A stretch of 62,685 nt of DNA. Origin: a virus. Taxonomy: Duplodnaviria > Caudoviricetes. The translations under genes and the position numbers were made by a program. Below, one piece after another: positions 16,024 to 56,551 of this stretch. Positions within the stretch are counted from its first letter, which is position 1. Each line of letters starts with the position of its first letter. Location: IMG/VR virus record IMGVR_UViG_3300037354_000009, positions 1 through 62,685 of that record; one strand, 5' to 3'. The notes under the pieces are model-generated. The model had not been told where the DNA came from. It searched no databases and was given only the letters and a program-made list of their open reading frames with translations.

Positions 16024-16052
16024 GCAAAACAGGCTGTTTTCCTGGGTATAAG
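16024..16052 (+). promoter_or_regulatory. phage promoter class A
   Basis: GCAAAA-N17-TATAAG (GGGTATAAGGATA); followed by hairpin CTGCTACA/TGTAGCAG and RBS. Confidence 0.8.
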
Positions 16053-16105
16053 GATACTGCTACAGGAAACGCTATTCTAACGATGGCGTGTAGCAGGAGG
16101 ACACT

Positions 16106-16411
16106 ATGCGTACACCCAAGAGTCAGAACCAAGGTCAGAAGGTTGCTACTCAAGACTCTATGACCCAAGCCGGGCTTCAAATCTCCCAGGCCACGCTTCA
16201 GGGCTACTTTGACAACCAAAAGGCCCAGGCTGATGCCGTCATCGCCTTCTTCAAGGACATGATGAGCTCCACCGTTCCGCTCGTGATGGCCGCCATTTCA
16301 ATGAAGGAGCGAGAATGCGCCTCCAGGATCGAAGTGGCCAAGTTGGAGCTGGAACGGGCCAAGCTCGAGAACCCGTCTGCCAAACGCCGTACCAGCAGTG
16401 ACGTTTCCTAG
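16106..16411 (+). CDS. hypothetical (probable early) protein
   Basis: 101 aa; RBS CAGGAGGACACT-ATG; own promoter and terminator. Confidence 0.75.
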   Translation: MRTPKSQNQGQKVATQDSMTQAGLQISQATLQGYFDNQKAQADAVIAFFKDMMSSTVPLVMAAISMKERECASRIEVAKLELERAKLENPSAKRRTSSDVS

Positions 16412-16430
16412 ACAACGGTCATGACCCAGG

Positions 16431-16463
16431 TTGACCCCGTCCAAACGGATCGGGGTCAATTTT
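16431..16463 (+). terminator. intrinsic terminator
   Basis: TTGACCCCG-TCC-AAAC-GGA-T-CGGGGTCAA then TTTT. Confidence 0.7.
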
Positions 16464-16525
16464 AGCCCCCAAAATAGGCCAAAATGGGGCGTTTTGGGCC
16501 CCCTATGGGATACCCCTCCAAACAG

Positions 16526-16554
16526 TGAAAAACATGGGTTTGGGTGGGTATAAG
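16526..16554 (+). promoter_or_regulatory. phage promoter class A
   Basis: TGAAAA-N17-TATAAG (GGGTATAAGGATATTG). Confidence 0.8.
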
Positions 16555-16614
16555 GATATTGAAGCAGGAAAGGATAGTCCGATCTTGTGGCCCAAAACTG
16601 ACCAGGAGGACACT

Positions 16615-17043
16615 ATGGAAACTGAAGAGAACTACACCATGAACAAGACCACCATCAAAGCCATCATCGCCAAGCTGGCCAGCACCAACCTCTCCGCTGA
16701 GGACTCGGAGAGTATCAAGAAAGACTTCGCATCCTTGTCCGACGAAGACAAGGACACCCTGCGGGCTAACCTCTCCACCTTCGGCTTCTACAAGAAGGGT
16801 GGGGCCTGGAATGCCGGAATGATAACCGAGTTCGGAGACCTTCTGCGACCCAACATCGGGGTGCACGAGACGGTCAAGGCCGCCGTCAACCTGGGCCTCA
16901 AGGGCTTGGGTATCGGTACTGGCGGCTACCTGGCATATCAGGGCGGCAAGGCCGTGCTCGAGAAGATGGGCGTGGTGGGTGTTACCAGCACGGGGCTGGC
17001 GGCGGCAGACACCCTGGGTGCGGCGGCCTTCGGCGATGAGTAG
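16615..17043 (+). CDS. hypothetical (probable early) protein with Gly-rich hydrophobic segment
   Basis: start moved to ATG 16615, RBS CAGGAGGACACT-ATG identical to that of 16106. Confidence 0.75.
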   Translation: METEENYTMNKTTIKAIIAKLASTNLSAEDSESIKKDFASLSDEDKDTLRANLSTFGFYKKGGAWNAGMITEFGDLLRPNIGVHETVKAAVNLGLKGLGIGTGGYLAYQGGKAVLEKMGVVGVTSTGLAAADTLGAAAFGDE

Positions 17044-17052
17044 ATCACAGTA

Positions 17053-17104
17053 GACACACCCTATTCGAATTGGTGTGTCGGGAGAGGCCATCGGGCTTCT
17101 CTTT
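17053..17104. terminator. tandem hairpins between convergent genes, probable terminator
   Basis: GACACACC/GGTGTGTC and GGAGAGGCC-ATCG-GGCTTCTCT-TT. Confidence 0.55.
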
Positions 17105-18914
17105 AGCCGTAATTCTCTGCCAGACCAGTGTCCTGTAGCGGTGCAAAGATATCTGGACGAGGGTTCTCCAGACACGCAGCCAGCAAGCACAGCAGGTGAG
17201 AGTGGAATGCGTCGTCTGTCTTACCAGGCTGCTTCTTGTACTCATTCATCCTGAGCCGCTCGTTATACTCGGTGAAGATGTTGAGCACGTCCTGAGCATG
17301 AGGTTCTTTGTAGTCTTCCCACCTAGGCAAGTCGATCTTCTTAGCCTTCATGGCATTGAACAGATCGCTCATGACCTCAGTCCTATGGGTCATCCAGCGC
17401 TTGAGGTTAGGCTCCCAATAGATCTTCTTTTTCTGCCTCGGATTGTATTGGTACTTCATTACCTTGTGCGCACCAAAGCGCTTGATTAACTTGTCATTGG
17501 GATAGAAGCCACCACCGTAGTCGACCCCTATGATCCTGACCTGCAACTGGGAGCACATCTGAGTGATAATGTCTAGCTGGCGCTCAGGGTCCAGGTCCTG
17601 CCCAGTGAAACGATGGCACCAAAAGATCGTGAAGTTTCCTGACCCCATGTACCCGCCAAAGGATACGTGTGTGTAGGATGCGCTCTCTCCCGGACCCCAG
17701 TCTATCCCAGCGTAGATAGCCCTACCCTGTGCCAGCGTACGGAACTGTTCAATGTCCCCCATCTCCAACTCTGGACGGCAGACAGCCTGCAGCTGAGCCC
17801 TGGTGATTGGACGAACACCAGAGTCATAAGACATACCCAGCTTCTCGTTCATGAACTGAGATCTTGAGTACTGCTCCTGGGCAACAGTAACCTCCTCCCA
17901 GTCCACCCACGGCACCATGATCTGAGGAATACGGTATCCCTCAAAGGTGACCTTGTCCTTATTGTCCACGGTCATGGGCTGCATAGAAGCCCACTGTGCC
18001 TTAGGGTGGCGAGCACTGATCAGCTCACCACACTTGTCACATATCAATCCCTCGGACCCTATGTTCTTCTCAGCCAGTACATTCCAGTGCCACGTACCCG
18101 AGTCACTCGGTAGACCGTGCCTCTCGCAAGGTACAACCCACTCATTCTGAGTAGAGAACTCACTCCAGTAGTGAGCGATGGTGTTGTCCACTGACTTAGG
18201 TGTGCCGGAGTAAAGGAAGAGCTTGTAGCTCGAGTGGAATGCACACTGCTCGATGACTGGGATGTTATCTACCAAGATGTCTTGAAGCTCATCGATCAAC
18301 ACCATATCCGCAGGAATACCACGGACACGGTCTGCTGTGAGGTAGGCGTACCTGAGTCTGATCTGAGAGTAGTTGATGAACTTCTTGAAGAAGACTGCTT
18401 GGTTGATCTTAGATGAGGTGTACGAACGAAGCATAGGTGAGGAGTCGATGACGTCCTTGATGCGGTCGTTCGAGAAGACCTTCGCTTGTTCAGCTGAGGG
18501 TGCGACGTACAAAGATCTGAAGTTGTTGGTCAGTGCTGAGTAGCAGAGTAGACGATTGCCTAGGGTGGTGGACTTCTCAACCTGACGACCGCACTGAAGT
18601 AGAACCTTGTTGGCTGGGGTATCATAGATCTTCTTGAGGTACTCACGTCCCTCGAAAGAGAAGTCTGAGATACGACCAGCCTCTGGCACCCTGATAGCAG
18701 TCTCCGCAAACTCAGATGGAGATACTCCAACCAGCTCTTCCATCTGAGCTGCGATCTCATCCTCCTCAGGTTCGAGATCTATTTGAAACTCTTGTGGTTC
18801 TCCTTCCTCGTTGTAGTCAAAGAAGGGTTCCCCTTGTCCATAGGAGACATGGTGAAGTGGAATAGCTCTCGCAGAGCTCAACATCTCAGCTTCATCTAGT
18901 CTGATCGTAGCCAT
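17103..18914 (-). CDS. terL: terminase large subunit (lambda gpA-like)
   Basis: Walker A-like CGRQVEKST, LYVAP, Walker B VLIDELQD, motif III SGTP, CxxC/H zinc pairs, RNase H-like GIDWG and C-terminal DDAFH. Confidence 0.85.
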   Translation of the reverse strand: MATIRLDEAEMLSSARAIPLHHVSYGQGEPFFDYNEEGEPQEFQIDLEPEEDEIAAQMEELVGVSPSEFAETAIRVPEAGRISDFSFEGREYLKKIYDTPANKVLLQCGRQVEKSTTLGNRLLCYSALTNNFRSLYVAPSAEQAKVFSNDRIKDVIDSSPMLRSYTSSKINQAVFFKKFINYSQIRLRYAYLTADRVRGIPADMVLIDELQDILVDNIPVIEQCAFHSSYKLFLYSGTPKSVDNTIAHYWSEFSTQNEWVVPCERHGLPSDSGTWHWNVLAEKNIGSEGLICDKCGELISARHPKAQWASMQPMTVDNKDKVTFEGYRIPQIMVPWVDWEEVTVAQEQYSRSQFMNEKLGMSYDSGVRPITRAQLQAVCRPELEMGDIEQFRTLAQGRAIYAGIDWGPGESASYTHVSFGGYMGSGNFTIFWCHRFTGQDLDPERQLDIITQMCSQLQVRIIGVDYGGGFYPNDKLIKRFGAHKVMKYQYNPRQKKKIYWEPNLKRWMTHRTEVMSDLFNAMKAKKIDLPRWEDYKEPHAQDVLNIFTEYNERLRMNEYKKQPGKTDDAFHSHLLCLLAACLENPRPDIFAPLQDTGLAENYG

Positions 18915-18943
18915 GCAAAAACTTCCTGTGTTCGAGGTATAAG
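18915..18943 (+). promoter_or_regulatory. phage promoter class A, abutting the terL start codon on the opposite strand
   Basis: GCAAAA-N17-TATAAG (AGGTATAAGGATATTG). Confidence 0.75.
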
Positions 18944-18946: not shown

Positions 18947-19080
18947 ATTGGTTGAGAGGAGTCTTACTCTGTCAACCAATCAAAACTCTGCTGGACCTCA
19001 GCACTGCATTGGTACCTAGTGAAAACTAGGAACCATTCATTGCTGATAGCCAACAGACCGGCGTAAGCCGGTCCAGTACT
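18947..19080 (+). ncRNA. candidate structured small RNA (~135 nt)
   Basis: no ORF; stems ATTGGTTGA/TCAACCAAT, TCAGCA/TGCTGA, CCTAGT-GAAA-ACTAGG, GACCGGC-GTAA-GCCGGTC (two GNRA loops on + strand); directly after class A promoter. Confidence 0.6.
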
Positions 19081-19088
19081 TAGCCCTA

Positions 19089-19613
19089 CTACGGTAGCCC
19101 TATGTAGGTACCGCATGGCCATTTGTACACTTCACCGATCTTAAACCCGAAGTGATAGATGAAGCGAACGATGAAGTTCTCTGACCACAAAGGACCAGTC
19201 GGCAATGACACAGACCAGCTGTCTACCTCAGGAAAGTACTCCATCTTTCCAGAGGAACCCTTGAAGTACTCCGTCAATGCCTCAGAAAGCTTCTCTTCGA
19301 AGCCAGGATTCCACGGGATCTTCTCGAATGCAGCGTTGGCTTCCGTGGCCAGAGCATTCTTAGCCTCATCAGTGGACAAGGTCCTCATCAGTTCTTCGGT
19401 TTCTTCGAATAGCTTCTTTCGATCTCTCTTGTAGAAGTGGTAGGTCAGCACGTCGCCTGCCACTCTCCACTCAGCCAACAGATTGTCCTTTACCACTTGG
19501 TTGAACTTAGGCACCGCCTTGATCACACTATCAAGCGGTACGGTATCTGTTGGTAGAGTGTCTACTGCTTTGTGTTCGGTCTCAGTTGCGAAGAACGGTA
19601 CGATCTCAGCCAT
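19089..19613 (-). CDS. hypothetical protein
   Basis: 174 aa, RBS GAGGA, coupled to upstream gene. Confidence 0.6.
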   Translation of the reverse strand: MAEIVPFFATETEHKAVDTLPTDTVPLDSVIKAVPKFNQVVKDNLLAEWRVAGDVLTYHFYKRDRKKLFEETEELMRTLSTDEAKNALATEANAAFEKIPWNPGFEEKLSEALTEYFKGSSGKMEYFPEVDSWSVSLPTGPLWSENFIVRFIYHFGFKIGEVYKWPCGTYIGLP

Positions 19614-22869: not shown

Positions 22870-24093
22870 CTACTTCAAATAAACGATCTTTGCGAGGATG
22901 CTAGCCAGTGCCCCTGCCTGAATGGGAGGACCATTGGGTACGTGAGTATGTGTTGCGAGCCAGTTCAATAACTGTAACCCAAGAACGCCTGGCTCGGAAG
23001 CGTCTGCACCACCTAATTTCAAAGAGGATGCAGTGATTGACTTGATCTTGGCCCAAGTCTCTGCACTTCCCTCATTTCCAGTAATGGTGTGGTCTTTCTT
23101 GATGGTCTCAGTGAGAGCACCCTGCACTATGAGTTCACGATCCTTAGTGACGGTGATGCTCTGTGTACCATCCACTGTCAGCGTGTCTGTACCGGTGATC
23201 TCTACCTTGCGGTCACCCTGCATCGTGTAGGTGGTGCCGTCTCTACCTATTCGAAGGATGAACTTCTCACTCTGGGTGGTTCCATCTATTGGATTCACGT
23301 TGTCTGGAGAGACCACCACTTCTATGAATGGAACAGCGTCACTGGGAAGATGGGTACTCTTAATCAAGGAGCCGACGCTTACCTTGACAGAAGCCATCTT
23401 ATCTTGAGCAAACTCTCTGGCCACCAGCATGAACTGCGTGGGAGCATCAGCATCAGGCGTGGTCTCCGACGGGTGCACCACCCAGCTCATGGTTCCGGCT
23501 GCTGTGTTCAGCTCGTAGTTCTCGCAGAAGTCCCGGATGTAGTTGCCTAGAGGTATGTAAGCCCGCTGACAGATATTAGTGGACCCTATCTGAAGGACAC
23601 CACCTCGACGCATGACTACGAAGTTCTCATCCCGGCCCTGCCACAGCATGTCCCCAGGGTTGAGCACGGGTCTCTTCGACCGGTAGCTTGCGTCCGAGAC
23701 CCTCTCCTGGGTAGTGCCACCGGAGGTGGATACCTTGGGCGTAGAGACGAGAGCAGTCTCCTGGGTACCTGTTGGCTCCTCCTGGGCGTTCGTACTGCCA
23801 GAGTCCACTGCCGATGCTTCAGGGGCAGTGAGGAACCCCATGACGAAGGGAGACTCGTCATCAGATGGCCAGCAGAGCACGCACACGGCACCTACCTCAG
23901 GCACTACGGTGAAGCCCTCACCGTTGTTGTAGTGGAGGTATGGGGCCATGATTTGCACCCCAGCGATCTGCCTGCCTGAGTGTTGGGACACCCAGTCTAT
24001 GGTCATGTTCTGTGGGTTCACGTTGGCTACGACACCGGTCTCACATCGAAACCGGCTCTTGCCGTCGCTCACCATTGAGTTCTTGAAGGCCAC
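22870..24093 (-). CDS. baseplate central spike protein (gpV/gp45/gp5-like)
   Basis: N-terminal OB-fold (GVVANVN...VPEVGAVCV...PFVMGF), 8-residue beta-helix repeats (ITGTDTLT VDGTQSIT VTKDRELI VQGALTET), C-terminal THTH tip motif. Confidence 0.75.
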   Translation of the reverse strand: MAFKNSMVSDGKSRFRCETGVVANVNPQNMTIDWVSQHSGRQIAGVQIMAPYLHYNNGEGFTVVPEVGAVCVLCWPSDDESPFVMGFLTAPEASAVDSGSTNAQEEPTGTQETALVSTPKVSTSGGTTQERVSDASYRSKRPVLNPGDMLWQGRDENFVVMRRGGVLQIGSTNICQRAYIPLGNYIRDFCENYELNTAAGTMSWVVHPSETTPDADAPTQFMLVAREFAQDKMASVKVSVGSLIKSTHLPSDAVPFIEVVVSPDNVNPIDGTTQSEKFILRIGRDGTTYTMQGDRKVEITGTDTLTVDGTQSITVTKDRELIVQGALTETIKKDHTITGNEGSAETWAKIKSITASSLKLGGADASEPGVLGLQLLNWLATHTHVPNGPPIQAGALASILAKIVYLK

Positions 24094-27000
24094 TAGTATT
24101 CCCCTGGCTTTCCTTTTCCTACCTCAGCACCGTACACAATGGCTGGGATCGGATGGACCCCGTGGATGCTACTCGTCCAGCCCTTCTGAGCTGCTTCTAT
24201 GATCGTATCCGACAGGTTCTCGTGATTGAGCTTAGCTATCCAGTCTTCTTGCATCTCTAGTGGTAGTACGTTGACACCCTTGAGAATGGGCTCATGGATT
24301 ATTGGGTGAGCTCCCTTAGGCATGCTCCTGTTGATACTGGAGACCTGAGACGTAGAAGCAAAGTCTCCACGGATATACCCAGTGGAGGAGCCTGGGTCCT
24401 TGATCTTAGTGAGGTTGGTCAGTGCCTTCACCACTACCTCGTGGTTCCTTCTACGGATACCCGAGTCAGCGAAGGCATTGCTTAGCTCCTTGGCCAAGTG
24501 CAATTGCACAGGCTCTACACCAGTGAGAGCAAGCATCTCGTGTGGATTCACCAGACCACCAGAGATTGGGCTACCCTTCTTAACCTCCATCCCGACCTTC
24601 AACGGCTGTCCGTTGTACATCGGGGCACCTATTGCGTGGGGTACGTAGTGCGTGTGCCCTTCTACGGTGACTTCGTAACCACCGGCTGCTGATGGGGCGA
24701 TCTTAGTTACCTTACCATTCACTCCGCTCAAAGTAGCAGACCCAGGCAGTACCTTCGGGAAGGCCAACAGATTCTTGACGTTCTCGAAGTCATCGACCAG
24801 AGCACTCTTAGAAGAGGCGGTACCACCAGTGTGGAACGCCTTCAGGGCCAGCTGCGTAGTGCGTTCGCCCAGGGACTGCCCAGCAAGGACACCTACGTTG
24901 AGTCCCTTCTCTGGCAACACACCGTTCTCTGTGAGACCGTAACACTTCTGGCAGATACCGGGCCCGTGCAGGCAGCGAAGTGGAGACCTGACCACTACCT
25001 TACCCACGTTATTGTTCCGTAGGGAATTGCGTACCTCAGGTGTGATCAGTGTGCCTGTCTTGAAGACGTGGCTGCCTGCCTTGATGTCAGCCGCAGTGAA
25101 CCTATCCAGGACGTCCTTGTCATCTACACCAAGGGCTATACCCTTATCTGTACCGCAGTCATGATCTACGATCAAATTGTTCATGACCGAGTTCATGACC
25201 TGCTTGCTGATGTAGCCAGGCTCCTGAACGGATTGAACCTTCTGGATGATGCCCTTACGGGAACCACTGATAGCCGTCCAGTAGTCTGCGACATCCAGTC
25301 CTTCGGAGTAAGACCTACGAACTGGAGTAGGGATGATCTCTCCCTTGTGATTGCTCATGAGCATGGGCGCAGCACGTATCTGCCTGAGGGTATCGGTACC
25401 ACCCTTCATGCCCACGTTGTGCAGGAGCATCAGATTGTTATCGCTCTCGGACACAGCCCTAAGATGTTTGTTCATCTCATTAGTGGCTGCAGCGTAGATG
25501 TCAATCTGCTTTTGATCTTTGTGTGGGCCAGTAAGCTTGTGTACTTTGGCATCGGCTTCAGCCAAGATCTTGTCTCTCATGTGGCGCTCAGGAGCTATGT
25601 CCTTCATGCCAATGGAGAAGGCCGTGTCTGTGGCCCACATGTTCCCGAGATCTTTCAGCTTGTTAGCAGCGTCACTGTACTCACCCTTGTGCTCCTTGCC
25701 GATCTGGGTGAACATGGCTTCCTGTGCCTTCTTGTCTAGAGAGGCACTGCCCTCTAGTAGCTTCCGGCGCATGGCCTCTGGTAGAGCACCGGCTACCATG
25801 AATCTTCCTACACTAGCCTTCATACCGCCTACAGACACTCTATCAGTGAGGTGCGCTTCTCCCCTCCTGACAGCAGCCTCCATCTCCTGCATGTTGGCGA
25901 ACTTATGATTCGTATTCTTCCCAGGCTGCATGATTCCATACAACCCGAGTCTGCTCTCGTTAGTCGGGGCGTACATGATGTCCCCTGTAGAAGGACTGAA
26001 TAGGTTCCTTGAGGGCAGCATCTTGTGTGCTTCTGCCACAGCTTCTACGCTCACAGGTACGAAGGCACCCATGGCATCGCCATCGAAGTCAGCATTGAAT
26101 CCGCTGGTAACCAGAGGGTGTACCTGCACCGCCTTGCCTCCTACTATACGAGGCTTGAATGCCTGCACACCGTACTTGTGGAGAACAGGATCTCTCTTGA
26201 GGAGAATGGGCCTACCTGCCATGACTCTGTTCAAAGCACGATCAACTATCTCACCACCCTCAGTCAGCTGCTTCTGTGCCTGCAGTGGGGTAATGCCAAG
26301 CATGTTCTTCAGCTCACGTACAACGAATGGCTTGTACACCTCGAGTGCAGCAGACCTAGGCAGGCCTACTTCGTCCAACCCTAGAGACGGCTCTGGGATA
26401 ATGGTTCCACGCATGGACATGTCCTGCTTGCGTTCGACCAATTGATCTTGGAAGAAGCCCTCCTTGGGAGAGCCACCCTTAGCGCCTGTCCTGACATCTA
26501 TGACCTTCTTGCCGTGGATGTAGTCCAGGATTCCTCTGCGCACCTGGGACGGGTACCCACCAATACCAGCCAGTGCACGAAGGCCATCATAGACCTCATT
26601 ACGAACGTCAACCTTCGACGGATCATCATCCGGGATCAATGGAGACATCTTAGAGTAACGAGAAGCCGATAGGTGCAGGTTCTTGTAAAGACCATTCAGA
26701 TCTTCTTCGCTGATGGTTCCATTGGGTAGCACTGGTAGAGGCCGCATCGAAGGAGGAAGAATAGGTATGGTCTTGGCTAGGTACGCTTGAGAAGGGGTCA
26801 TGCCCACCTTGTCTAGCGCCTGCAGCAACTTCACTTTGCTGTTGGCATGGTCTAGGTAGGAGCCTTTCAACGTAGGCTTATCTAGTGCGATCTTAGCGGC
26901 AGCTAGGTCTCTCTTCACATCGATCTTTCCAAGCATGTGCTCGAAAGCCTTACCTCCTACGATCCCACCAGGCATCTTCTCAGCCAGCCCTATCTTACCC

Positions 27001-30000
27001 GTACCAGGATCTACGGCTAGCGTACCACCCACCACCCCATCGAACTCTTTCTGCTTGATGCCAAGCAAACGAATGATCGCACTCTCAAAGACTGGATTCG
27101 GAAAGGCTTCTGGCAGGTGGTAATGTGACCACTTCGTACCCTCTAGCCCACCAGTAACCTTGGGGTCGAACAAACCACCGGGTTCTGGCTTCATGTTCTT
27201 GGCAGTAACCCACCGAGCTGGATCTGTGATCTCACCGTTGCTCTGCTCAACGATCTGCTTGTCAGTCATCGGCATCAACGTGAGATTGTTCCCTACTTTG
27301 TGTACATTCACCCCTAGCCCCTTGATGTACCCAAGGAACTTGTGATACGCAAACGAAGGCTTAGGTGTAGGCAACATCTCTCCAGCCTGGAGAGCGGACC
27401 AGAACTGATCTCCTTGAGCAGCGTCACTCTTCAGAGTCTGCATCTCTCGCAAGTTGGCCACTGCACCGTGAGCCAGCATAGAGTACAGACCAAGGGTACC
27501 CAGAGACTTGGCTCCCTGTGGACCACCGCCCCTAGGGATCATGTTCTTGTCGTAGGCGTAGCCAGTACCACCAGCACGAGCACTCAGCTTCTTTTCTACC
27601 TGGTGATGGAGCTTGAAGACGTGCATGGGTCCGACTAAAACGTCACCCATCTTGTTGTGAGTAACGGGATCGAATACCTCTTCCTTGTCTGTGAGTCCAT
27701 GCTTCTCGAGGTCAGCCGTCACCTGTGCATGGAAGTCTGCGCCTGGAGCAAAGTTCTTGACCAGGTAAGGCTTGCCAGTCTTCTCTGCAATCTTACCGGC
27801 TGCGACCTCGAGCACCTGCCCTAAGTTGGTTCTACCCGTGACACCCAGTGGGTTCAGTAAGATCTCAAGATGCCTACCGTCCTTGGTGTGTGGCATCTCG
27901 CTGTCAGGTATGATGCGAGTAACGATACCCTTATTACCGTGCCTGCCTGTGGCCTTGTCACCGATCTCAAGTGGCTCCTCAGTCTTCACGTGTACTGACA
28001 CGTTCTTGCCGACCTTCACCACCTCTTTGACGATACCAGAGTAGTCGCTGTCCCACTTGATGCTGGAGTCTTTGTACGGCCTGACGATGGACTTGTGAAG
28101 CTTCGACAGTTCTATGTCTTCCTTACGCTCAGGATCATTAGAAGCACGAAGAGCAGCCACCAAAGTATCCCCAGGCATAATCACTGTACCTGGTAGTACG
28201 ACGCCTTCTTCATCTAGCTTGTCGTACTGAGCCTTGTTCATGGCCGTTGGCATGTACGCCTGGAACTTCTTCTTGTCCAGGATGTGTGCGATGTCCCGCT
28301 CCAGAGAGTGCCTGTGCAGGTGCTCAGATGTCAGCTTCTTAGCTGCGCTCTCGCTGACCACGATGCCGTCATCAAAGTTGTACCCTTTGTAGGGCATGAA
28401 CCCTGCTCGCAGGTTGGTTCCTATGGCTAGAGTACCGCCCTTGGTGTAGTTGGTATCAGCAATGGTCTGCCCATCAGTAACCCGATCACCCACCTTAACG
28501 ATGGGCTCAGCATGCATGAAGGCCTTGTCCTCGTTCAGTGGAAAATTATCGTAGATGTGTACCTCGTGCTTGCCACCATCAGATTTCTTGATGATGATGG
28601 AGTCGGACTTGATCTTGTGGACTACGCCATCTACTGGAGATCTGTGACTAGCAAAAGTACCGACCACCTTATCAAAACTATTGGCACCAGCCATGCTCTG
28701 AACAAGAGGGACCTCCCTATGCTTGAGCGAGATAGCTTGTTCCATCTGCCGACCAGCCATGGTGCTACGGTTCGGGTGATCTGAGGGCATGAATGGAATC
28801 ATGTTGGATGACATAGAGAACATCTGAAGAGGGTCCTTCATGATGTAGTCTGCGTCCTTCAACTTCCCCTCATAGATCTCGTTGCCTGGCCCACTGATCT
28901 TGACTACGTCACCTGCAGCCTTTGGCTTGCCGCCTTCCCAGTGTACTTGATCTGGTAGAGCTACGTGTGACCGGTATGCCAGAGCAGGATTCACATCCTC
29001 ATGCTTCCCAGTCTTCGTGTTGTACATACGCACAACAACATCGTGCCCCTTCTTGATGACACCAAGAGGGAGTCGCAGGGTGATGCCGGTAGCGTGACCT
29101 TCGGGAGTATGGATAGGGTCCAAGAATCCTAAGTGAGAGGGGTCAATCAACTTGGCATCGTCGCTGATCTGATGCTCAGACTTGACGCCACCATCCCCCA
29201 TGATGGTTGTCTTCATCTGCGCAGAAACCATCTCCAACGGATTCGTCTGGTCCGTAACGATAGCTAGAGAGTTCTTACCGAACATCTGCTTGATCGGACG
29301 GTTGAACACCTCTGGAGAGATGATGTCCCTGACTCTATCCTTTCGGTCAATGTTATTGTTGACCTTCCTTATGATCTCTCTAGAGCCTTTGATCAACCTC
29401 TCTGCTGCAAAGTCCTCAATCGAATGGAGGTCTTTGAACATGAGAGCATCACGTGGGTCTGGCTTAGCCTCACCTCGAGAGATCTGAAGGAGCTTGTGAG
29501 ATGCGTCCAACAATAATGGGCCAGTGACTGATGTGTACCCTTTACCTAAGGTGAATAGGTTCACCTCTGGACGAAGTACAGTCTTGCCCATGGTCTCCCA
29601 CAGGTGCGCCTTTGCCTCATCTGGCGTGGGCTTAGTAGTCTTGTCACCTGTAGATGCCCGGTAGAACTTGGCCAGTTCCTTGGTCTCGTCTGCGTGATTG
29701 ACACCTACGATGTCTTTACCCCAGGACTTCTCTACCTCTTCCTCAGACACACCCATGGCGTGTAGGAACGGTTTCAATGGCATGTTTGAGTTGCCGTAGT
29801 TCAGTGTGAACTCCTTCGACTTTGGATCGAAGTGTACCTTGAACCCGCCAATAGCATTGACATGAGACTCGAGAGCCCCGTCTGCTTTGACCATGTTATA
29901 GACACCTGGCTTCAGCCTCCACTGGTTGTCTATCTGGTACTCTTGGCCATCCACAATGTGGCTATACCTACTGGTGACCTTAGGCAGGTTCAGCAGGTTC

Positions 30001-30260
30001 ATCTTCTGCTTGTCTATGACCTTGCCAGAAGTGTTGTCCTTCAAGGTGACTGTGGCTTCAACAGGAACGGACCAAGTACGTCCGCTCAGCTTGGCCTGTT
30101 TCTGTGACCTGAGATCATCGATACTCAGATTATCTTTAACCGCTACATCATGTAGTTCTAGCGTGTTCTTCCGCCCGATTATGGGGAAGAGCCCGCTGAC
30201 TGCCTTTTGTACTCGGTCCTTGAGGAGTTCAAACCCCTCTTCCGGTGCAAGACGTGCCAA
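24093..30260 (-). CDS. rpoBC: single-polypeptide two-barrel DNA-directed RNA polymerase, fused beta and beta' homologues
   Basis: beta motifs GDKATGRHGNKG, LLNPLGVTGRTNLGQVLE, KLHHQVEKKLSAR; beta' motifs RPILLKRDPVLHK, HPLVTSGFNADFDGD (~26076-26096), DCGT, VRSPLRC..GICQKCYG, GQSLGERTTQLALKAFHTGG; TTG start with RBS GAGGA. Confidence 0.95.
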   Translation of the reverse strand: MARLAPEEGFELLKDRVQKAVSGLFPIIGRKNTLELHDVAVKDNLSIDDLRSQKQAKLSGRTWSVPVEATVTLKDNTSGKVIDKQKMNLLNLPKVTSRYSHIVDGQEYQIDNQWRLKPGVYNMVKADGALESHVNAIGGFKVHFDPKSKEFTLNYGNSNMPLKPFLHAMGVSEEEVEKSWGKDIVGVNHADETKELAKFYRASTGDKTTKPTPDEAKAHLWETMGKTVLRPEVNLFTLGKGYTSVTGPLLLDASHKLLQISRGEAKPDPRDALMFKDLHSIEDFAAERLIKGSREIIRKVNNNIDRKDRVRDIISPEVFNRPIKQMFGKNSLAIVTDQTNPLEMVSAQMKTTIMGDGGVKSEHQISDDAKLIDPSHLGFLDPIHTPEGHATGITLRLPLGVIKKGHDVVVRMYNTKTGKHEDVNPALAYRSHVALPDQVHWEGGKPKAAGDVVKISGPGNEIYEGKLKDADYIMKDPLQMFSMSSNMIPFMPSDHPNRSTMAGRQMEQAISLKHREVPLVQSMAGANSFDKVVGTFASHRSPVDGVVHKIKSDSIIIKKSDGGKHEVHIYDNFPLNEDKAFMHAEPIVKVGDRVTDGQTIADTNYTKGGTLAIGTNLRAGFMPYKGYNFDDGIVVSESAAKKLTSEHLHRHSLERDIAHILDKKKFQAYMPTAMNKAQYDKLDEEGVVLPGTVIMPGDTLVAALRASNDPERKEDIELSKLHKSIVRPYKDSSIKWDSDYSGIVKEVVKVGKNVSVHVKTEEPLEIGDKATGRHGNKGIVTRIIPDSEMPHTKDGRHLEILLNPLGVTGRTNLGQVLEVAAGKIAEKTGKPYLVKNFAPGADFHAQVTADLEKHGLTDKEEVFDPVTHNKMGDVLVGPMHVFKLHHQVEKKLSARAGGTGYAYDKNMIPRGGGPQGAKSLGTLGLYSMLAHGAVANLREMQTLKSDAAQGDQFWSALQAGEMLPTPKPSFAYHKFLGYIKGLGVNVHKVGNNLTLMPMTDKQIVEQSNGEITDPARWVTAKNMKPEPGGLFDPKVTGGLEGTKWSHYHLPEAFPNPVFESAIIRLLGIKQKEFDGVVGGTLAVDPGTGKIGLAEKMPGGIVGGKAFEHMLGKIDVKRDLAAAKIALDKPTLKGSYLDHANSKVKLLQALDKVGMTPSQAYLAKTIPILPPSMRPLPVLPNGTISEEDLNGLYKNLHLSASRYSKMSPLIPDDDPSKVDVRNEVYDGLRALAGIGGYPSQVRRGILDYIHGKKVIDVRTGAKGGSPKEGFFQDQLVERKQDMSMRGTIIPEPSLGLDEVGLPRSAALEVYKPFVVRELKNMLGITPLQAQKQLTEGGEIVDRALNRVMAGRPILLKRDPVLHKYGVQAFKPRIVGGKAVQVHPLVTSGFNADFDGDAMGAFVPVSVEAVAEAHKMLPSRNLFSPSTGDIMYAPTNESRLGLYGIMQPGKNTNHKFANMQEMEAAVRRGEAHLTDRVSVGGMKASVGRFMVAGALPEAMRRKLLEGSASLDKKAQEAMFTQIGKEHKGEYSDAANKLKDLGNMWATDTAFSIGMKDIAPERHMRDKILAEADAKVHKLTGPHKDQKQIDIYAAATNEMNKHLRAVSESDNNLMLLHNVGMKGGTDTLRQIRAAPMLMSNHKGEIIPTPVRRSYSEGLDVADYWTAISGSRKGIIQKVQSVQEPGYISKQVMNSVMNNLIVDHDCGTDKGIALGVDDKDVLDRFTAADIKAGSHVFKTGTLITPEVRNSLRNNNVGKVVVRSPLRCLHGPGICQKCYGLTENGVLPEKGLNVGVLAGQSLGERTTQLALKAFHTGGTASSKSALVDDFENVKNLLAFPKVLPGSATLSGVNGKVTKIAPSAAGGYEVTVEGHTHYVPHAIGAPMYNGQPLKVGMEVKKGSPISGGLVNPHEMLALTGVEPVQLHLAKELSNAFADSGIRRRNHEVVVKALTNLTKIKDPGSSTGYIRGDFASTSQVSSINRSMPKGAHPIIHEPILKGVNVLPLEMQEDWIAKLNHENLSDTIIEAAQKGWTSSIHGVHPIPAIVYGAEVGKGKPGEY

Positions 30261-37534: not shown

Positions 37535-37564
37535 ATAGTACGTTCCGAAGACAAGTCATGTCAA
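37535..37564 (-). promoter_or_regulatory. sigma70-consensus promoter for portal operon
   Basis: minus strand TTGACA(37564-37559)-N18-TACTAT(37540-37535). Confidence 0.7.
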
Positions 37565-47418: not shown

Positions 47419-47425
47419 TACTCGG

Positions 47426-47460
47426 AGCCCCGCTCTCATAAGGAGGGCGGGGTTTCTTTT
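47426..47460 (+). terminator. intrinsic terminator
   Basis: GCCCCGCTCTC-ATAAG-GAGGGCGGGGT then TTCTTTT. Confidence 0.8.
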
Positions 47461-47492
47461 CTCTCGATAACCTGCCACAGGAGGGCCGTGCA

Positions 47493-49427: not shown

Positions 49428-49428
49428 C

Positions 49429-52117: not shown

Positions 52118-52656
52118 AAGGCGTGGAACTGGAACTAGGTATTCGATACGTGGGCTTTGGTCTGTCTTGCACCAACTGTGGAAAGGTCAGAGAATCCACA
52201 CGCTACGTACTTAGGGACGCACAGTCGGGCACCCTCCTGCAGGAGGCTCGACTGTGTGACCAGTGCCAAGACAAGGGACACGTGATCAAGTTCAACGTGG
52301 CATCCACAGACCCACGAGCAGCAGTACGAGCTGCTAGAAGAGTAAAGCTATCCAGGAACATGGAGAGAGGGCTAGCCCTGGACGTTGGAGGGGTAGTACA
52401 GCCAGGGTCAGGGAATGGGGATGACAAGGATGACGTTCGGGTCCATGGGGAGTGGCGCTTCGAACACAAGTACACAGACAGCGTCAAGAGCTACAAACTC
52501 GAGGCCACTGACTTGGCTGCTGTTGCAAGGCACGCCAAATTGGCGGGTGAGAAACCAGCTCTGGTGTTGAACTTCCGAAAACTGGGGAAGAGGTTCGTGA
52601 CACTCCCCTACGACCTCTTCTTGGAGATCATGGAGAAGATACGTGGAAAGAACTGA
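52114..52656 (+). CDS. PD-(D/E)XK Holliday-junction resolvase-like nuclease with N-terminal zinc finger
   Basis: CTNC/CDQC; QPGSG...DDV...FEHK. Confidence 0.65.
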   Translation: MKGVELELGIRYVGFGLSCTNCGKVRESTRYVLRDAQSGTLLQEARLCDQCQDKGHVIKFNVASTDPRAAVRAARRVKLSRNMERGLALDVGGVVQPGSGNGDDKDDVRVHGEWRFEHKYTDSVKSYKLEATDLAAVARHAKLAGEKPALVLNFRKLGKRFVTLPYDLFLEIMEKIRGKN

Positions 52657-53521
52657 GCTACTCACAATTGCAGACAGCAAGGACTTCCGTAAGGAGGTCC
52701 TGCAGCACATAGTAATCAAAGATCGTGTAGAGGCGATGCTAGAGGACATGAACGCAGAGCCCGTAGAGCTGCGGGGTGAACTGAGAATCGGAGACGCACC
52801 AAGAAGGAAGCACATCTTCCATGCGTCCGAGATTGGCAGACTCACTGGTAAGACCCTAGACAAGAAGTACCCAATGGGCTGTGGCAGGGCCCTCTACTAT
52901 GGGTACGTGGGAGCTAAGTCTGAGAACTCCTTCGATCCTAGACTCCGCCGCATCTTCGACAATGGTTCGGGTATCCACCTGCAACTGCAGATGTACATGC
53001 ACCACTATGCTAAGAAGCACAAGAAGACGGACAAGTTCCAGGACGAGGTGGGTATCAGCCCAGAGAACAATGCGATGGCAGATAGCTACGATATCTCTGC
53101 CCACATGGACGGCCTATGGGAGTTCACTACTCCCACCATCCACGCCAGAGCAGGACTAGAGATCAAATCCATCAATGACGAGGGCTTCAAGGCCACCAAA
53201 GGCGCACACCAGGAACACATTATACAGGGCACCGTCTACCAGGCATGCCTGGACCTGCCTCTCATGGTGTTCCTGTACTACAACAAGAACGACTCCAGCC
53301 TTGCTGAGTACGTTCAGGTGTTCGATGAGGATAGGTGGAACTCGATCAAAGAGAAGCTCGACTATGTTCGTGGGTGTGCCATGAAAGGAACCGAGCCTCC
53401 ACAAGAGATCACCTTTGGTTGCAGGAACTGCAAGTACGCAGCTGTCTGCAAGCCACCTAAGATGGGACGCGGAGGCCCGTCAGCCCTCAGCACACTCCGC
53501 ACCAGCAGGAAGGGACAATAA
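52643..53521 (+). CDS. Cas4/AddB-like PD-(D/E)XK exonuclease
   Basis: HASE, C.RALYY, G.GIH, HMDG, LEIKS, Q...Y, C-terminal CRNCKYAAVC. Confidence 0.75.
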   Translation: MERTELLTIADSKDFRKEVLQHIVIKDRVEAMLEDMNAEPVELRGELRIGDAPRRKHIFHASEIGRLTGKTLDKKYPMGCGRALYYGYVGAKSENSFDPRLRRIFDNGSGIHLQLQMYMHHYAKKHKKTDKFQDEVGISPENNAMADSYDISAHMDGLWEFTTPTIHARAGLEIKSINDEGFKATKGAHQEHIIQGTVYQACLDLPLMVFLYYNKNDSSLAEYVQVFDEDRWNSIKEKLDYVRGCAMKGTEPPQEITFGCRNCKYAAVCKPPKMGRGGPSALSTLRTSRKGQ

Positions 53522-54123
53522 TGCCAACCACTGAAGCAGAGTACACACACGGCGTGAACATGTACGCCCAAGCCGTGGACAAGGGTGACGCTGACATGAC
53601 CCTGATGGGCTTCCCACAGGCAGAGCGCCCAAAAAGGGGTGAAGAGCTAGCGGACAGACCACAGCTACCAGAACGCATCAGCGATCTGAACATGTCACAG
53701 TTGTTGGACCTATTGACCTGGTACACCGCCTGGTTCGACTACGCCACCAACCTGATGCCAAAGGCCAGGTCGATGAAGACCTCTCTGGAATCCGCCAGAG
53801 ACTTCGCCTGGGCTAAGATCAGAAGAGAGAAGAGGGACGAGAAAACTGTCTCTGACAAGGACGACGCAGCTCGTACCGATCTGAGGTACATCAAGCTCAA
53901 CGCCGACCTGGAGACGGCAGACTACAGATACAACATGCTGAAGGCCATCTCAGAGGGCCTGTACAGAGACATAGAAACCATCTCCCGTGCCATCACAGGA
54001 CTGTCAGATCGATTCAACAGTGAGGGGCACAGGTACACTGGGGAGAAGATAGCTAGCAAGCACGGTGTTGGGCAGTCACACCCAGGCATGAACGTACTAT
54101 CCAGGTTCAGGAAGAAGTCATGA
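53521..54123 (+). CDS. helical hypothetical protein (possible UvsY-like recombination mediator)
   Basis: 200 aa coiled-coil pattern with KTVSDKD; in recombination cluster. Confidence 0.5.
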   Translation: MPTTEAEYTHGVNMYAQAVDKGDADMTLMGFPQAERPKRGEELADRPQLPERISDLNMSQLLDLLTWYTAWFDYATNLMPKARSMKTSLESARDFAWAKIRREKRDEKTVSDKDDAARTDLRYIKLNADLETADYRYNMLKAISEGLYRDIETISRAITGLSDRFNSEGHRYTGEKIASKHGVGQSHPGMNVLSRFRKKS

Positions 54124-54569
54124 GCTACCTGAAGGTGTGGATAGATCGTCTACCACCCTCATCCAACAAGATCTATGTGAGCGTCCCAGGAAAGGGGAGG
54201 TTCCTATCGCCACAGGCGTCAGCCTTCAAGGTGTACGCCATGCGGACGATCCAACAGCAGGGCAGGGTAGCCTTCCTAGGCATGAAGCAGAACGTACCAT
54301 ACGAGTTACGCCTGATAGTGTTCTTCGATCAAGTTGAGTACCTGAAATCTGCGAAGGGAACACGGTATAAGCGTATAGATCTTAGCAACCAAGTTAAGCT
54401 GATCGAAGATACGGTTGCAGCAGCAACAGGCATAGATGACTCGCATAACTTCAGGATGGTCTTGGAGAAGCACTGCGATCCAGACCACCCAGGTATGTAC
54501 GTCACCCTGCTACCCATCTCAGAAGATCGAGTTGGGCTCACCAAGGAGCAGTACGATGCAGACACGTAA
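54120..54569 (+). CDS. rusA: RusA-like Holliday junction resolvase
   Basis: LPPSSNKIY...DLSNQVKLIED...GIDDS. Confidence 0.75.
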   Translation: MSYLKVWIDRLPPSSNKIYVSVPGKGRFLSPQASAFKVYAMRTIQQQGRVAFLGMKQNVPYELRLIVFFDQVEYLKSAKGTRYKRIDLSNQVKLIEDTVAAATGIDDSHNFRMVLEKHCDPDHPGMYVTLLPISEDRVGLTKEQYDADT

Positions 54570-54918
54570 CTACGAAGAGATGAACGTAACAGAGCTGGTT
54601 GCGCTAGCCAGAAGGGCAGGCATCCTGTCGGCCCACCGTGGTATGGGAAGAGAGCTTCTGACAGGGATGCTCACAGAGGAAATAGATCCTGCGGACGTAG
54701 ACAACCCAGACCCAATAGACGAAGAACGAGAGCTCATGCTCTACCTACAAGAGACCCAACCGGACATGATCTTGGGACAGCTGAAGTGTAAATCAGAACA
54801 CTACTTCTGCCCTCTCTGTCCGCCCGCTAGGGTAGCCATGTGTGCCGTCATATCCAGCTCACAAGGATTCAGGGAACGCAACAAGGCCGACATGCTACAT
54901 GGCATTCGGAGGCCGTGA
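54556..54918 (+). CDS. protein with N-terminal Rho-N/HEH-like motif and Cys cluster
   Basis: YEEMNVTELVALARRAGI; start ATG 54556, RBS AAGGAG. Confidence 0.55.
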   Translation: MQTRNYEEMNVTELVALARRAGILSAHRGMGRELLTGMLTEEIDPADVDNPDPIDEERELMLYLQETQPDMILGQLKCKSEHYFCPLCPPARVAMCAVISSSQGFRERNKADMLHGIRRP

Positions 54919-55148
54919 TGCCTTCCTGTGGGTCATGTGGGAATCTAAGAACCTGCTACGTAGTTGATGAAAAGAAGCTGGCTTCGGGATACTATTGCGG
55001 TTCCTGGGTCAGTGCTGCCGAAAGTGTGCTGACTGCACGTGACCAGATCAATGAAGCGTTCGGACCTTGGGCACTCAAGTTCGAACTGCCACCTACTGCT
55101 ATGAAGAGTGTTGTTTCGAGAATGAGGAGAAGACACAAAAATGGCTAG
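54918..55148 (+). CDS. small Cys-rich protein
   Basis: MPSCGSCGNLRTC...YYC; TGATG coupling, RBS GGAGG. Confidence 0.55.
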   Translation: MPSCGSCGNLRTCYVVDEKKLASGYYCGSWVSAAESVLTARDQINEAFGPWALKFELPPTAMKSVVSRMRRRHKNG

Positions 55149-55635
55149 CACCTATACCCGTGAAGAGCTGGAGAACCTGCGCCGATCTGAGATTCGGACC
55201 ATTGCAGTCAGCGATGGATTCGACATGTCCCCCAAGGACGCAGTGAGTGCTCCATCCAAGGACCTGATCGAGTACATCCTATCCAAGCAGGGTGGGGAGA
55301 AGAAGGCTGCAGGTGGCAAGAAGGCTGCTGCCAAGGCTGCTCCTGTCTCCGAGCCGGAAGAGACACCAGAGGAGGCCCCAGAAGAGGCTCCAGCAGCAAC
55401 CAAGACCTCCAAGAAGGAGGAAGCAACCACCGTCACCAGGATCAACAAGCTCGGTGAAGCACTGGACACTGTCCAGGCTGAGATGAAGAGCGAGATTGGC
55501 GACGTCAAGCAGCAGGTCTATGTGCTCATGGCCATGGTCAAGCTGATGCTCGGCACCACCGACCTCGAGCCCAAGGACATCGACGAAGCAATCGAAGCCG
55601 CCAGTGCGGAGTTCGAAGAGCAGGGAAAAGAGTAG
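55141..55635 (+). CDS. Rho-N/HEH-like protein ending in a GGGAAAA slippery site
   Basis: TYTREELENLRRSEIRTIA; acidic linker; coiled coil; ends CAG GGA AAA GAG TAG. Confidence 0.7.
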   Translation: MASTYTREELENLRRSEIRTIAVSDGFDMSPKDAVSAPSKDLIEYILSKQGGEKKAAGGKKAAAKAAPVSEPEETPEEAPEEAPAATKTSKKEEATTVTRINKLGEALDTVQAEMKSEIGDVKQQVYVLMAMVKLMLGTTDLEPKDIDEAIEAASAEFEEQGKE

Positions 55636-55830: not shown

Positions 55831-55863
55831 GAAGGGCCCCCAAACCAGGGGGCCTTTTCTTTT
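55831..55863 (+). terminator. intrinsic terminator ending replication operon
   Basis: GGCCCCC-AAACCA-GGGGGCC then TTTTCTTTT. Confidence 0.85.
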
Positions 55864-55868
55864 AACCA

Positions 55869-55898
55869 TGAAAAAGGCGCGTCATGTACGGGTATAAG
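55869..55898 (+). promoter_or_regulatory. phage promoter class A
   Basis: TGAAAA-N18-TATAAG (GGGTATAAGGAT). Confidence 0.75.
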
Positions 55899-55916
55899 GA
55901 TTGTGGAGGACACCTT

Positions 55917-56198
55917 ATGAAACCTATTGTGGAGAGATCAGTCCGACTTGTTTCGCACAGAAACCTCACAGGAGTGACTATGGGTACGACCAGGGGAAAG
56001 AACGGAGTGCCGCCAATGCATGCTGTAGGCAGCGTCCCCCCAACCAGATCTTCTAAGGTCATGGCAGATGCCATCATAGCCAGGACACCGACCAAAGATC
56101 GATACGGCATCGACTACGTGCTTCGTCACGGGATCAACTCAGACGTTGACTCTCTTGCTGTCCAGCACGAACTCGACCAGGCTAACCTGGAAGAGTAG
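55917..56198 (+). CDS. hypothetical protein
   Basis: start ATG 55917, RBS GGAGGACAC. Confidence 0.65.
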   Translation: MKPIVERSVRLVSHRNLTGVTMGTTRGKNGVPPMHAVGSVPPTRSSKVMADAIIARTPTKDRYGIDYVLRHGINSDVDSLAVQHELDQANLEE

Positions 56199-56199
56199 C

Positions 56200-56382
56200 A
56201 TGCCACAAAAGAGGGAATGGAAAACCTCTCCGTGGATCAAGCTGAGACCCAAGTTTCTAGAAGACTACTACAGGAGCTACAAGCCACTGGTGCAACGGAT
56301 AGCTGTAGTCGCTCTACCCAGGCTACAAGAAGTGATGAAGATAGTGGATAAGTCCACCCATCAGACTAGCGAAGGAGGGTAG
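56200..56382 (+). CDS. small basic hypothetical protein
   Basis: MPQKREWKTSPW...; ATG 1 nt after upstream stop. Confidence 0.5.
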   Translation: MPQKREWKTSPWIKLRPKFLEDYYRSYKPLVQRIAVVALPRLQEVMKIVDKSTHQTSEGG

Positions 56383-56394
56383 TCTGATGGCAAT

Positions 56395-56467
56395 GGGCCT
56401 GTAGCTCAACGGTCAGAGCAGGCGGCTCATAACCGCTCGGTTCGGGGTTCGAATCCCTGCAGGCCCA
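56395..56467 (+). tRNA. tRNA with CAT anticodon, most likely tRNA-Ile2 (lysidine type); CCA not encoded
   Basis: acceptor GGGCCTG/CAGGCCC, D arm GCTC/GAGC, anticodon GGCGG-CTCATAA-CCGCT, T arm GGTTCGAATCC; C4,C5 acceptor pattern as in bacterial Ile2 tRNAs. Confidence 0.9.
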
Positions 56468-56469
56468 CT

Positions 56470-56520
56470 GAGAATCCCCACAGCCAACACTGGTTGGACT
56501 GCACTGTGGGGATTTTCTTT
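56470..56520 (+). terminator. hairpin/terminator after tRNA
   Basis: GAGAATCCCCACAG/CTGTGGGGATTTTC then TTT. Confidence 0.7.
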
Positions 56521-56522
56521 AG

Positions 56523-56551
56523 GCAAAAGATGATCACATTCGGGGTATAAG
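56523..56551 (+). promoter_or_regulatory. phage promoter class A
   Basis: GCAAAA-N17-TATAAG (GGGGTATAAGGA). Confidence 0.75.

Follow-up and report, generated by a model that had tools for sequence, protein, structure and literature searches.

The stretch of DNA considered here, a 62,685-nucleotide (nt) contig of a tailed phage (Duplodnaviria; Caudoviricetes; IMG/VR record IMGVR_UViG_3300037354_000009), carries on its plus strand repeated copies of an eight-nucleotide word, GGTATAAG, that appears to form the core of a phage-specific promoter. This stretch, hereafter the window, is the whole contig. CheckV scored it as 33% complete, its relatives reach 168 kb, and we estimate that it represents about a third of a ~180-kb phage. 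The only sequencing runs found to contain the sequence were two DNA runs, both labelled peat metagenome, and a near-identical search of positions 1 to 25000 against GenBank phages returned no match. The minus strand holds the virion genes, including those for the major head protein, the terminase, a gp5-like spike, and a tail-fibre-like protein. Also on the minus strand, at 24093..30260, an open reading frame (ORF) encodes a fused beta-beta' RNA polymerase (RNAP) of the multisubunit type, 2055 amino acids long (Pfam Rpb2_6 at 1e-58, Rpb2_3, and Rpb1_1/2/3/5; PHROG RNAP beta families); the phage encodes its own catalytic beta/beta' core in this ORF. The NADFDGD sequence of the polymerase was invariant in 10/10 aligned homologues. 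By tblastn, its best matches among named phages were Vibrio phages D69, D181, and D148 (31%) and Salmonella phage Arash (33%), with bacterial rpoB/rpoC at 28%. The polymerase gene opens an operon that extends to the terminase and includes the gp5-like spike.

We detected eight exact copies of GGTATAAG in the window, all on the plus strand. Across 100 dinucleotide-preserving shuffles of the window, the mean count was 0.66 and the largest was 4 (0/100 shuffles reached 8). The signal resides in the exact octamer, since the TATAAG hexamer alone was not enriched in the window (12 matches versus 11.2 expected) and one-mismatch variants were at chance level (28, including the 8 exact copies, versus 25.3 expected). 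Seven of the eight copies lie in non-coding DNA, which makes up 5.0% of the window in the curated gene map (binomial 6e-9). An earlier note on this DNA had described seven intergenic, plus-strand copies of a bipartite motif, with upstream hexamers starting at 16024, 16526, 18915, 30322, 37579, 55869, and 56523. All seven are real. However, an eighth exact copy at 54364-54371 was overlooked, and the intergenic location does not extend to it, as it lies inside a RusA-like ORF. The note had named equal frequency in coding DNA and on both strands as grounds against its reading; the window has the opposite pattern (7/8 non-coding, 8/8 plus strand). Restriction to the plus strand is a property of the window but not of the clade: in the 168-kb relative G006, 12 copies are on the plus strand and 16 on the minus strand.

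Flanks extracted around the octamers revealed a second element, a (T/G)(G/C)AAA(A/T) box upstream of all eight copies. The gap between box and GG is 15 nt at six sites and 16 nt at two, equivalent to the 17-18 nt to TATAAG given in the earlier note. The GG preceding the hexamer and the G that ends it are both invariant at the window sites. Seven nt after TATAAG there is a purine at every site (G at seven, A at one), and in 6/8 a T directly precedes G. The layout is that of a sigma-type promoter: an A-rich box (T(G/C)AA(A/T)A for the class), 15-16 nt, G(G/T)TATAAG, 6 nt, and a purine at the predicted transcription start (+1).

At five of the eight sites (designated P1 to P8), a Shine-Dalgarno sequence and start codon follow on the same strand at a distance of 26-70 nt (ORFs 16106, 16615, 30408, 37678, and 55917). 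P1 (16024..16059), with box GCAAAA at 16024-16029, octamer at 16045-16052, and predicted +1 G at 16059, precedes the ORF at 16106-16411. P2 (16526..16561; box TGAAAA, octamer 16547-16554, predicted +1 G 16561) precedes the ORF at 16615-17043. P3 (18915..18950; octamer 18936-18943, predicted +1 G 18950), whose GCAAAA box adjoins the start codon of the terminase gene on the opposite strand, is followed by no ORF. P4 (30322..30357; box TGAAAT, octamer 30343-30350, predicted +1 G 30357) is divergent from the RNAP gene and precedes ORFs running from 30408 to ~31494. P5 (37579..37615; box GCAAAA, 16-nt gap, octamer 37601-37608, predicted +1 A 37615) heads an 18-kb replication and recombination module at 37678-55635, encoding an SF2 helicase, a uracil-DNA-glycosylase-family protein, a DnaB-like helicase, a primase, and a family A DNA polymerase, as well as an HU-like protein, endonuclease VII, a RecA/UvsX-like protein, and Cas4-like and RusA-like nucleases. 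P6 (54343..54378; box TGAAAT, octamer 54364-54371, predicted +1 G 54378) is the copy within the RusA-like ORF (54120-54569); its octamer, with TGAAAT 15 nt upstream, is 185 nt from the next gene start, that of ORF 54556-54918. The relatives G006 and G002 keep both the box and the octamer of P6 unchanged, with a variable spacer. P7 (55869..55905; box TGAAAA, 16-nt gap, octamer 55891-55898, predicted +1 G 55905) precedes ORFs at 55917-56382 and a tRNA-Met (CAT) gene at 56395..56468 on the plus strand, the last gene of the unit (ARAGORN; Rfam tRNA, 70 bits). P8 (56523..56558; box GCAAAA, octamer 56544-56551, predicted +1 G 56558) again has no ORF downstream. The claim of the earlier note that such sites precede all plus-strand units except the gene at 15492 is correct for coding units, but the sites at 18936 and 56544 have no coding unit to serve.

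Intrinsic terminators accompany three of these sites. One at 55834-55863 precedes P7 and another at 56473-56520, after tRNA-Met, precedes P8; they end only 3-6 nt from the respective boxes, and the P7 and P8 units therefore need promoters of their own. A third, at 16433-16463, lies 63 nt ahead of the P2 box. With terminators ahead of P2, P7, and P8, these units are arranged as terminator-promoter cassettes.

The two ORF-less sites each appear to drive a conserved structured RNA. From P3, a structured region at 18950..19090 on the plus strand runs antisense to the spacer between the late genes at 19089-19613 and the terminase gene at 17103-18914. This 140-nt spacer folds at -58 kcal/mol (z -5.8), with 0/200 shuffles equally stable. 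The loci of 11 relatives have this promoter next to the start of the terminase gene, with strongly folding sequence after it in every case, and pairwise inspection across relatives indicated the same three-hairpin layout in the close ones. From P8, a small hairpin RNA of ~100 nt is predicted at 56558..56655 on the plus strand, extending from the predicted +1 to a T-rich tail, with its 5' end paired to its 3' end (fold z -3.7) and a terminator-like end at 56629-56655. Pairing begins exactly at the predicted +1 in the window (56558) and in G006 alike. The stem is retained in G006, where one G-C pair of the window is replaced by A-U, a compensatory change, and the terminator is separate. The onset of pairing offers an independent check of the predicted start point. 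A search of Rfam (E up to 1) returned only the tRNA and a sub-threshold DUF805b match, placing neither ORF-less transcript in a known RNA family. Within the replication module, the 110-amino-acid ORF at 43454-43786 (plus strand) has a near-threshold Hfq-related match (PF21979, 26.6 bits, cut-off 27), of interest beside two small RNAs.

Leader hairpins are common in the window. Among folds of 58-147 nt, leaders at four of the eight sites were clearly more stable than shuffles (16045, z -3.6; 18936, z -5.8; 37601, z -2.9; 56544, z -3.7). The 30343 leader forms a clean 8-bp stem with compensatory changes in relatives (CAAGGG/CCCTTG, TAGAAG/CTTCTA, and AAAGGG/CCCTTT), and the stability of the 16547, 54364, and 55891 leaders was not distinguishable from that of shuffles. 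Hairpins are thus convincing at five of the seven sites known to the earlier note, but not at the six that it counted. At z < -1.5, we counted hairpins at 5/8 sites in the window, 7/28 in G006, 6/31 in Arash, and 5/24 in D69, setting aside four G006 sites in long ORFs and the plus-strand sites of Arash and D69; upstream control segments gave 7/28, 3/31, and 2/24 in G006, Arash, and D69, respectively. Since rates in the relatives equal or only slightly exceed those of the controls, we rejected the hairpin as a defining feature of the class across the clade.

Conservation was assessed in 28 related IMG/VR loci whose RNAP is 41-88% identical to that of the window. The exact octamer occurs in 17/28 of these loci; of its 43 copies there, 42 run opposite to the RNAP gene. 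These include copies orthologous to the sites at 30343, 18936, 37601, 16045, and 16547; 14 of these 17 loci have a site orthologous to P4, and P5 has orthologues in G006 and L002. In seven more distant loci, which lack an exact match, GTTATAAG or GATATAAG stands at the P4-orthologous site, divergent from the RNAP gene. At 41-49% RNAP identity, only ATAAG-like words were seen, except in L021 and L022, which have GTTATAAG. The octamer was retained at orthologous sites while the flanks diverged. G006 itself (168 kb, 42% G+C, RNAP 81% identical) holds 28 copies of GGTATAAG, its top intergenic-enriched 8-mer, with 19/28 in the 8.8% of its DNA that is intergenic. There, back-to-back GGTATAAG promoters at 137368 (minus strand) and 137390 (plus strand) form a compact divergent pair in which each octamer is upstream of the other's box. 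Two other intergenic words of G006 were set aside: AAATATAA had no common context, and GCCGAAAT, absent from the window, is at three places part of a long perfect palindrome. These palindromes (~50 nt, intergenic, with centre GATTTCGGCAC(c/g)GTGCCGAAATC) lie at ~36.8 kb, 98.4 kb, and 151.35 kb (L031, L034, and L037) and could be bidirectional terminators or protein-binding sites. Taken together, placement, sigma-type geometry, upstream terminators, and retention at orthologous sites despite diverging flanks offer good support for P1 to P8 as promoters, in agreement with the earlier note, with both promoter role and start point predicted from the DNA sequence.

The word extends to cultured phages. 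In Salmonella phage Arash (OQ632216.1), for which annotation of positions 1-50000 and 127168-137667 was covered, G(G/T)TATAAG occurs 33 times, compared with 7 control matches, and 31 of the 33 copies lie on the strand that does not carry the RNAP and virion genes. Within 90 nt, 27/33 copies have a start codon with its ribosome-binding site (median 28 nt), compared with 21% of random positions, and the genes served comprise nucleotide metabolism genes, small genes, and tRNAs. As in the window, the octamer is strand-biased before non-virion genes and tRNAs, and polymerase, sigma factor, and motif occur as a trio (for the window, the sigma factor is taken from relatives). Arash differs in having separate beta and beta' genes, a weak upstream box, and a strong downstream tAAaGTGTAaaca element. 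In Vibrio phage D69 (OZ195729.1), 24 of 28 G(G/T)TATAAG copies are on one strand, against 16 control matches; D69 shares the trio and the strand bias but prefers GTTATAAG, its main form. The window and G006 share a TGAAAA-like upstream box; its counterpart in D69 resembles TCAATAA, as does, less strongly, that of Arash. We dropped the idea that the C-terminal region of the sigma factor co-varies with this box, as the TCAATAA-like box of D69 and Arash resembles TGAAAA of the window. On the plus strand of Arash, a different word, (C/T)TAAAAT(A/C), stands 20-30 nt before the starts of four late-type genes (30620-30658, 128057-128119, 137585-137659, and the genome end), and is a candidate late promoter distinct from GGTATAAG. 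The word 'promoter' is absent from the published description of Arash (PMC10585845). Among the papers listed by the literature searches, none relevant to GGTATAAG as a promoter, or to transcription from it, was found.

Virion genes in the same genomes are fronted by promoters of another kind. The tail-fibre unit at 37504-31495 is headed by a sigma70-consensus-like TTGACA-18-TACTAT at 37535..37564 (minus strand), kept in G006, and the virion unit starting at 15406 by TTGACA-18-TATTCT at 15426..15455 (minus strand), with TTGACA-17-TATCCT at the orthologous place in G006. Back to back with the latter, a weak TTGACT-18-CAGAAT at 15437-15466 (plus strand) is the only candidate promoter for the gene at 15492. 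The region 15426-15466 as a whole is a near-palindrome, TTGAC(A/T)...GTCAA, containing the two back-to-back -35 boxes; the same arrangement recurs in G006 near 69357 and could be a shared operator. Promoters of the form TTGACA-17/18-TAnnnT number two in the window, five intergenic in G006, and five intergenic in Arash. The RNAP gene is fronted by a conserved TATAAT on the opposite strand to P4 that overlaps the P4 box (30322-30334, TGAAATTATAC; other strand, GTATAATTTCA), and the divergent promoters therefore overlap. A sigma70-like terminase promoter (TTGACA at 18975, minus strand) was not claimed, as G006 has GTGACA there, part of a hairpin stem.

Several observations on neighboring genes stand apart from the promoters. 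In several relatives (L001-L004, L014, L015, and L027) the RNAP gene is interrupted or lengthened, its match covering 7.6-9.0 kb rather than 6.2 kb, and the annotation of Vibrio phages D181 and D148 places a homing endonuclease beneath the match, which suggests introns or inteins in the polymerase gene. Among the virion genes, 4527-5540 (minus strand) encodes a 337-amino-acid protein whose C-terminus matches DnaJ (J-domain; 28.1 bits, cut-off 27.8). Elsewhere, 56757-58103 (minus strand) encodes a 448-amino-acid protein with an 'InPase' domain (PF18823, 4e-42) that is common to large virion and DarB-like phage proteins in PHROGs.

The octamer would not be a -10 word used by primary sigma factors. 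All eight sites read TATAAG and lack the T at position 6, and the upstream box matches TTGACA in at most 3/6 positions in register; the 17-18-bp spacer does agree. A sigma70 scan that required T at the last -10 position recovered 0/6 sites within two scanned regions of three sites each, because the last -10 base is G. According to passages of a jumbo phage review (PMC7598289), A-11 and T-7 are the bases flipped out and bound by sigma region 2.

A candidate reader of ~255 amino acids is encoded by the relatives. G006 has a 254-amino-acid sigma70-family protein (Sigma70_r3, 5.8e-7; Sigma70_r2, 0.006; PDB SigA/RpoD chains, down to 2.9e-10) that matches RpoD-family NCBIfam models at 1e-15 but lies far below the family cut-offs. 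Homologues were found in 3/5 further records searched (G007, G005, and G008), and in the cultured phages as Arash gp10 (36% identity, 6e-32) and in D69 (tblastn, 5e-21). The gene was found neither in the 64%-complete G004 nor in the window (33% complete). When aligned to Bacillus subtilis SigA, the phage sigma has G-Q in place of the W-W pair of the -10-reading helix, and the following helix differs as well; the replacement is in keeping with a changed -10 specificity. Both the sigma and the polymerase are encoded in virion-gene operons, on the strand opposite the GGTATAAG promoters. When the sigma of G007 was modeled in complex with residues 1000-1450 of the polymerase from the same record, the score was 0.78 (best control, 0.00), a mark reached by 116/157 solved complexes and 2/215 mismatched pairs. 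Runs agreed in at least 71% of contacts, with a partner pLDDT (a per-residue measure of model confidence) of at least 76, and the modeled interface (RNAP 1178-1221 with sigma 69-89) corresponds to the expected positions of the clamp helices and of sigma region 2.

From these data we consider it probable that GGTATAAG marks a single phage-specific, sigma-type promoter class for non-virion genes, read by the lineage's own sigma factor, most likely on its own fused polymerase. The promoters would switch on the small accessory genes, the replication and recombination module, the tRNA, and two structured RNAs. A lineage-encoded sigma70-family factor would read them, most likely bound to the fused beta-beta' polymerase as the candidate core enzyme, and the virion genes and the polymerase gene on the other strand would use more host-like promoters. 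Retention of the octamer in peat, Salmonella, and Vibrio phages whose flanks are all different fits a reader that is inherited with the phage. The earlier note had proposed a phage RNAP or a specific sigma factor as the reader; this agrees with the fused polymerase of the window, the sigma factor of relatives, the failed sigma70 scan, and the shared word in Salmonella, Vibrio, and peat phages, from which we infer the identity of the enzyme.

Several points weigh against this reading. No sigma gene lies in the window, so that its presence in this phage is assumed from relatives, and the partner of the sigma could be the host core enzyme. The score of the modeled complex may reflect likeness to solved sigma-beta' complexes, and the model cannot tell the phage core from a host core. 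At ~62% RNAP identity, relatives have only 4-7 exact copies in 58-137 kb, confined to one strand (control matches, 0-3), so that motif density differs within the clade. Nor does the whole clade have the bipartite form to the same degree, since the upstream box of Arash is weak, and conservation at 54364 is less telling because that site lies in coding DNA.

A possible extension, which we hold only tentatively, is that the complete holoenzyme (fused core plus sigma) is packaged and injected, making GGTATAAG the early promoter of a sigma-dependent virion RNAP. Packaging and injection of the polymerase is the design of N4, phiKZ, and crAss-like phages. The non-virion program would then start without the host enzyme, with virion and polymerase genes left to host-type promoters, as in N4; the P3 RNA, antisense to the terminase leader, could restrain late functions or prime replication. 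A polymerase and sigma made only with the virion genes could start the replication genes only if they were packaged and injected. In an Arash particle preparation, more spectra came from the beta subunit than from any other protein, and beta' and the sigma gp10 were among the others identified, as reported in sections of the Arash description (PMC10585845). Its particle list, however, holds 116 proteins, ribonucleotide reductases included, and the same sections raise carry-over (PMC10585845); detection of polymerase and sigma may therefore reflect abundance rather than packaging, which also counts against the phage-enzyme reading.

It is unlikely, though worth weighing, that the phage sigma reads these sites on the host core RNAP, as SPO1 gp28 and T4 gp55 do, with the fused polymerase serving another class such as late genes. 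The phage sigma is a recognizable sigma70-family protein, and its gene and that of the polymerase are among late virion genes, which could mean late synthesis and late action. Sigmas that redirect the host core are the commonest known case, noted for jumbo phages without their own RNAP in passages of the review (PMC7598289). However, if late operons were its only source, the sigma would have to be packaged in order to start the non-virion genes; the factor is modeled on the clamp helices of the phage polymerase (0.78 against 0.00); and phages of different hosts have inherited octamer, sigma, and polymerase as a set. We give a lower probability again to the sites being ordinary early promoters with a tolerated -10, read by a host holoenzyme with a primary or alternative sigma and perhaps a phage activator. 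TATAAG does equal TATAAT in 5/6 positions, spacing and start distance are classical, and the genes driven are of early or middle type. Yet the invariant final G and the invariant GG are not primary-sigma features, and the sigma70 scanner found none of the six sites. The same genomes also hold good sigma70-like promoters (TTGACA-17/18-TAnnnT) apart from these sites, and the exact octamer is common to phages from peat, Salmonella, and Vibrio with flanks that are all different. Very improbably, the word is an RNA-level or protein-binding leader signal (a processing site or the operator of a phage regulator) and not a promoter: its gene-oriented placement 25-90 nt before start codons would also suit such a signal, but a fixed 17-18-nt box spacing and a conserved T-1/G+1 are DNA-level promoter features, P7 and P8 follow terminators by 3-6 nt with no room for another promoter, pairing in the P8 RNA begins only after the word, at the predicted +1, and Arash has the word before tRNA genes too.

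If the phage-specific reading is correct, core, sigma, and an 8-nt word would make up a compact orthogonal transcription system, with a ready annotation rule for transcription units in the clade. The exchange of T-7 for G, together with the replaced W-W pair, would also offer a case in which to study how sigma factors alter their -10 recognition. Were the enzyme injected, it would be without precedent, to our knowledge, as a virion polymerase that depends on a sigma factor. Promoters specific to a phage and read by its own sigma or polymerase are already known; here, a wide clade of ~180-kb phages joins a bacterial-type beta-beta' to a sigma70-family factor. As the word is nearly invariant from peat to cultured Salmonella and Vibrio phages, the prediction is bench-testable in Arash or D69.

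Among known systems, these promoters resemble those of the sigma70 family with an extended -10 element and the words read by phage-encoded sigmas, but they belong neither to the primary-sigma class nor to the sigma-28 class. A sigma70 promoter combines a -35 element, a 17-bp spacer, TATAAT, and a start ~7 nt further on, with TGn in the extended -10 form. Promoters of the sigma70 family and the extended -10 type share with the present class a bipartite form, a 17-18-bp spacer, TATAAx, a 6-nt discriminator, a pyrimidine at the predicted -1, a purine at the predicted +1, and conserved bases upstream of the hexamer. In contrast, the last -10 base here is G and not T, GG or GT and not TGn abuts the hexamer, and the box is not TTGACA. 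Sigma-28 (FliA/SigD) has the consensus TAAA-N15-GCCGATAA, which is similar in its A-rich -35 word, a gap of ~15 nt, and an 8-nt -10 word ending in ATAA; in both cases the reader would be a small sigma without region 1.1. We nevertheless rejected assignment to this class, as only ATAA is common to the two -10 words and the first half is GG/GT here versus GCCG. The phage sigma itself scored 57.6 bits against RpoD-type models and 32.7 and 29.4 bits against FliA/WhiG, all far below the family cut-offs. The phage sigmas SPO1 gp28 and gp33/34 (from a B. subtilis phage) and T4 gp55 use the host core and drive middle or late genes. They resemble the present system in that a phage sigma with a sharply defined, phage-specific word separates gene classes; however, this lineage also encodes a beta-beta' core, and its word marks non-virion genes, with sigma and core among the virion genes.

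Phage polymerases offer a second comparison. The uncultured tailed phages of the mReC study (PMC7481178) likewise encode beta and beta' close to cellular RNAP; the words 'promoter' and 'sigma' are absent from that paper. In phiKZ and AR9, according to passages of the jumbo phage review, a conserved AT-rich word of ~10 nt centered near -10 precedes presumed early operons, is detectable by bioinformatics, and is ascribed to the virion multisubunit RNAP (PMC7598289). The same passages describe AR9 gp226 as having no sequence similarity to sigma, and polymerases of the phiKZ/AR9 type as split, very divergent, and lacking a recognizable sigma (PMC7598289). The core of the present clade differs in being fused, in lying closer to bacterial beta/beta' (28-33% identity in tblastn), and in being paired, in relatives, with a recognizable sigma70-family protein. 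Where these passages treat RNAP-encoding and sigma-encoding jumbo phages as separate groups (PMC7598289), this clade combines both.

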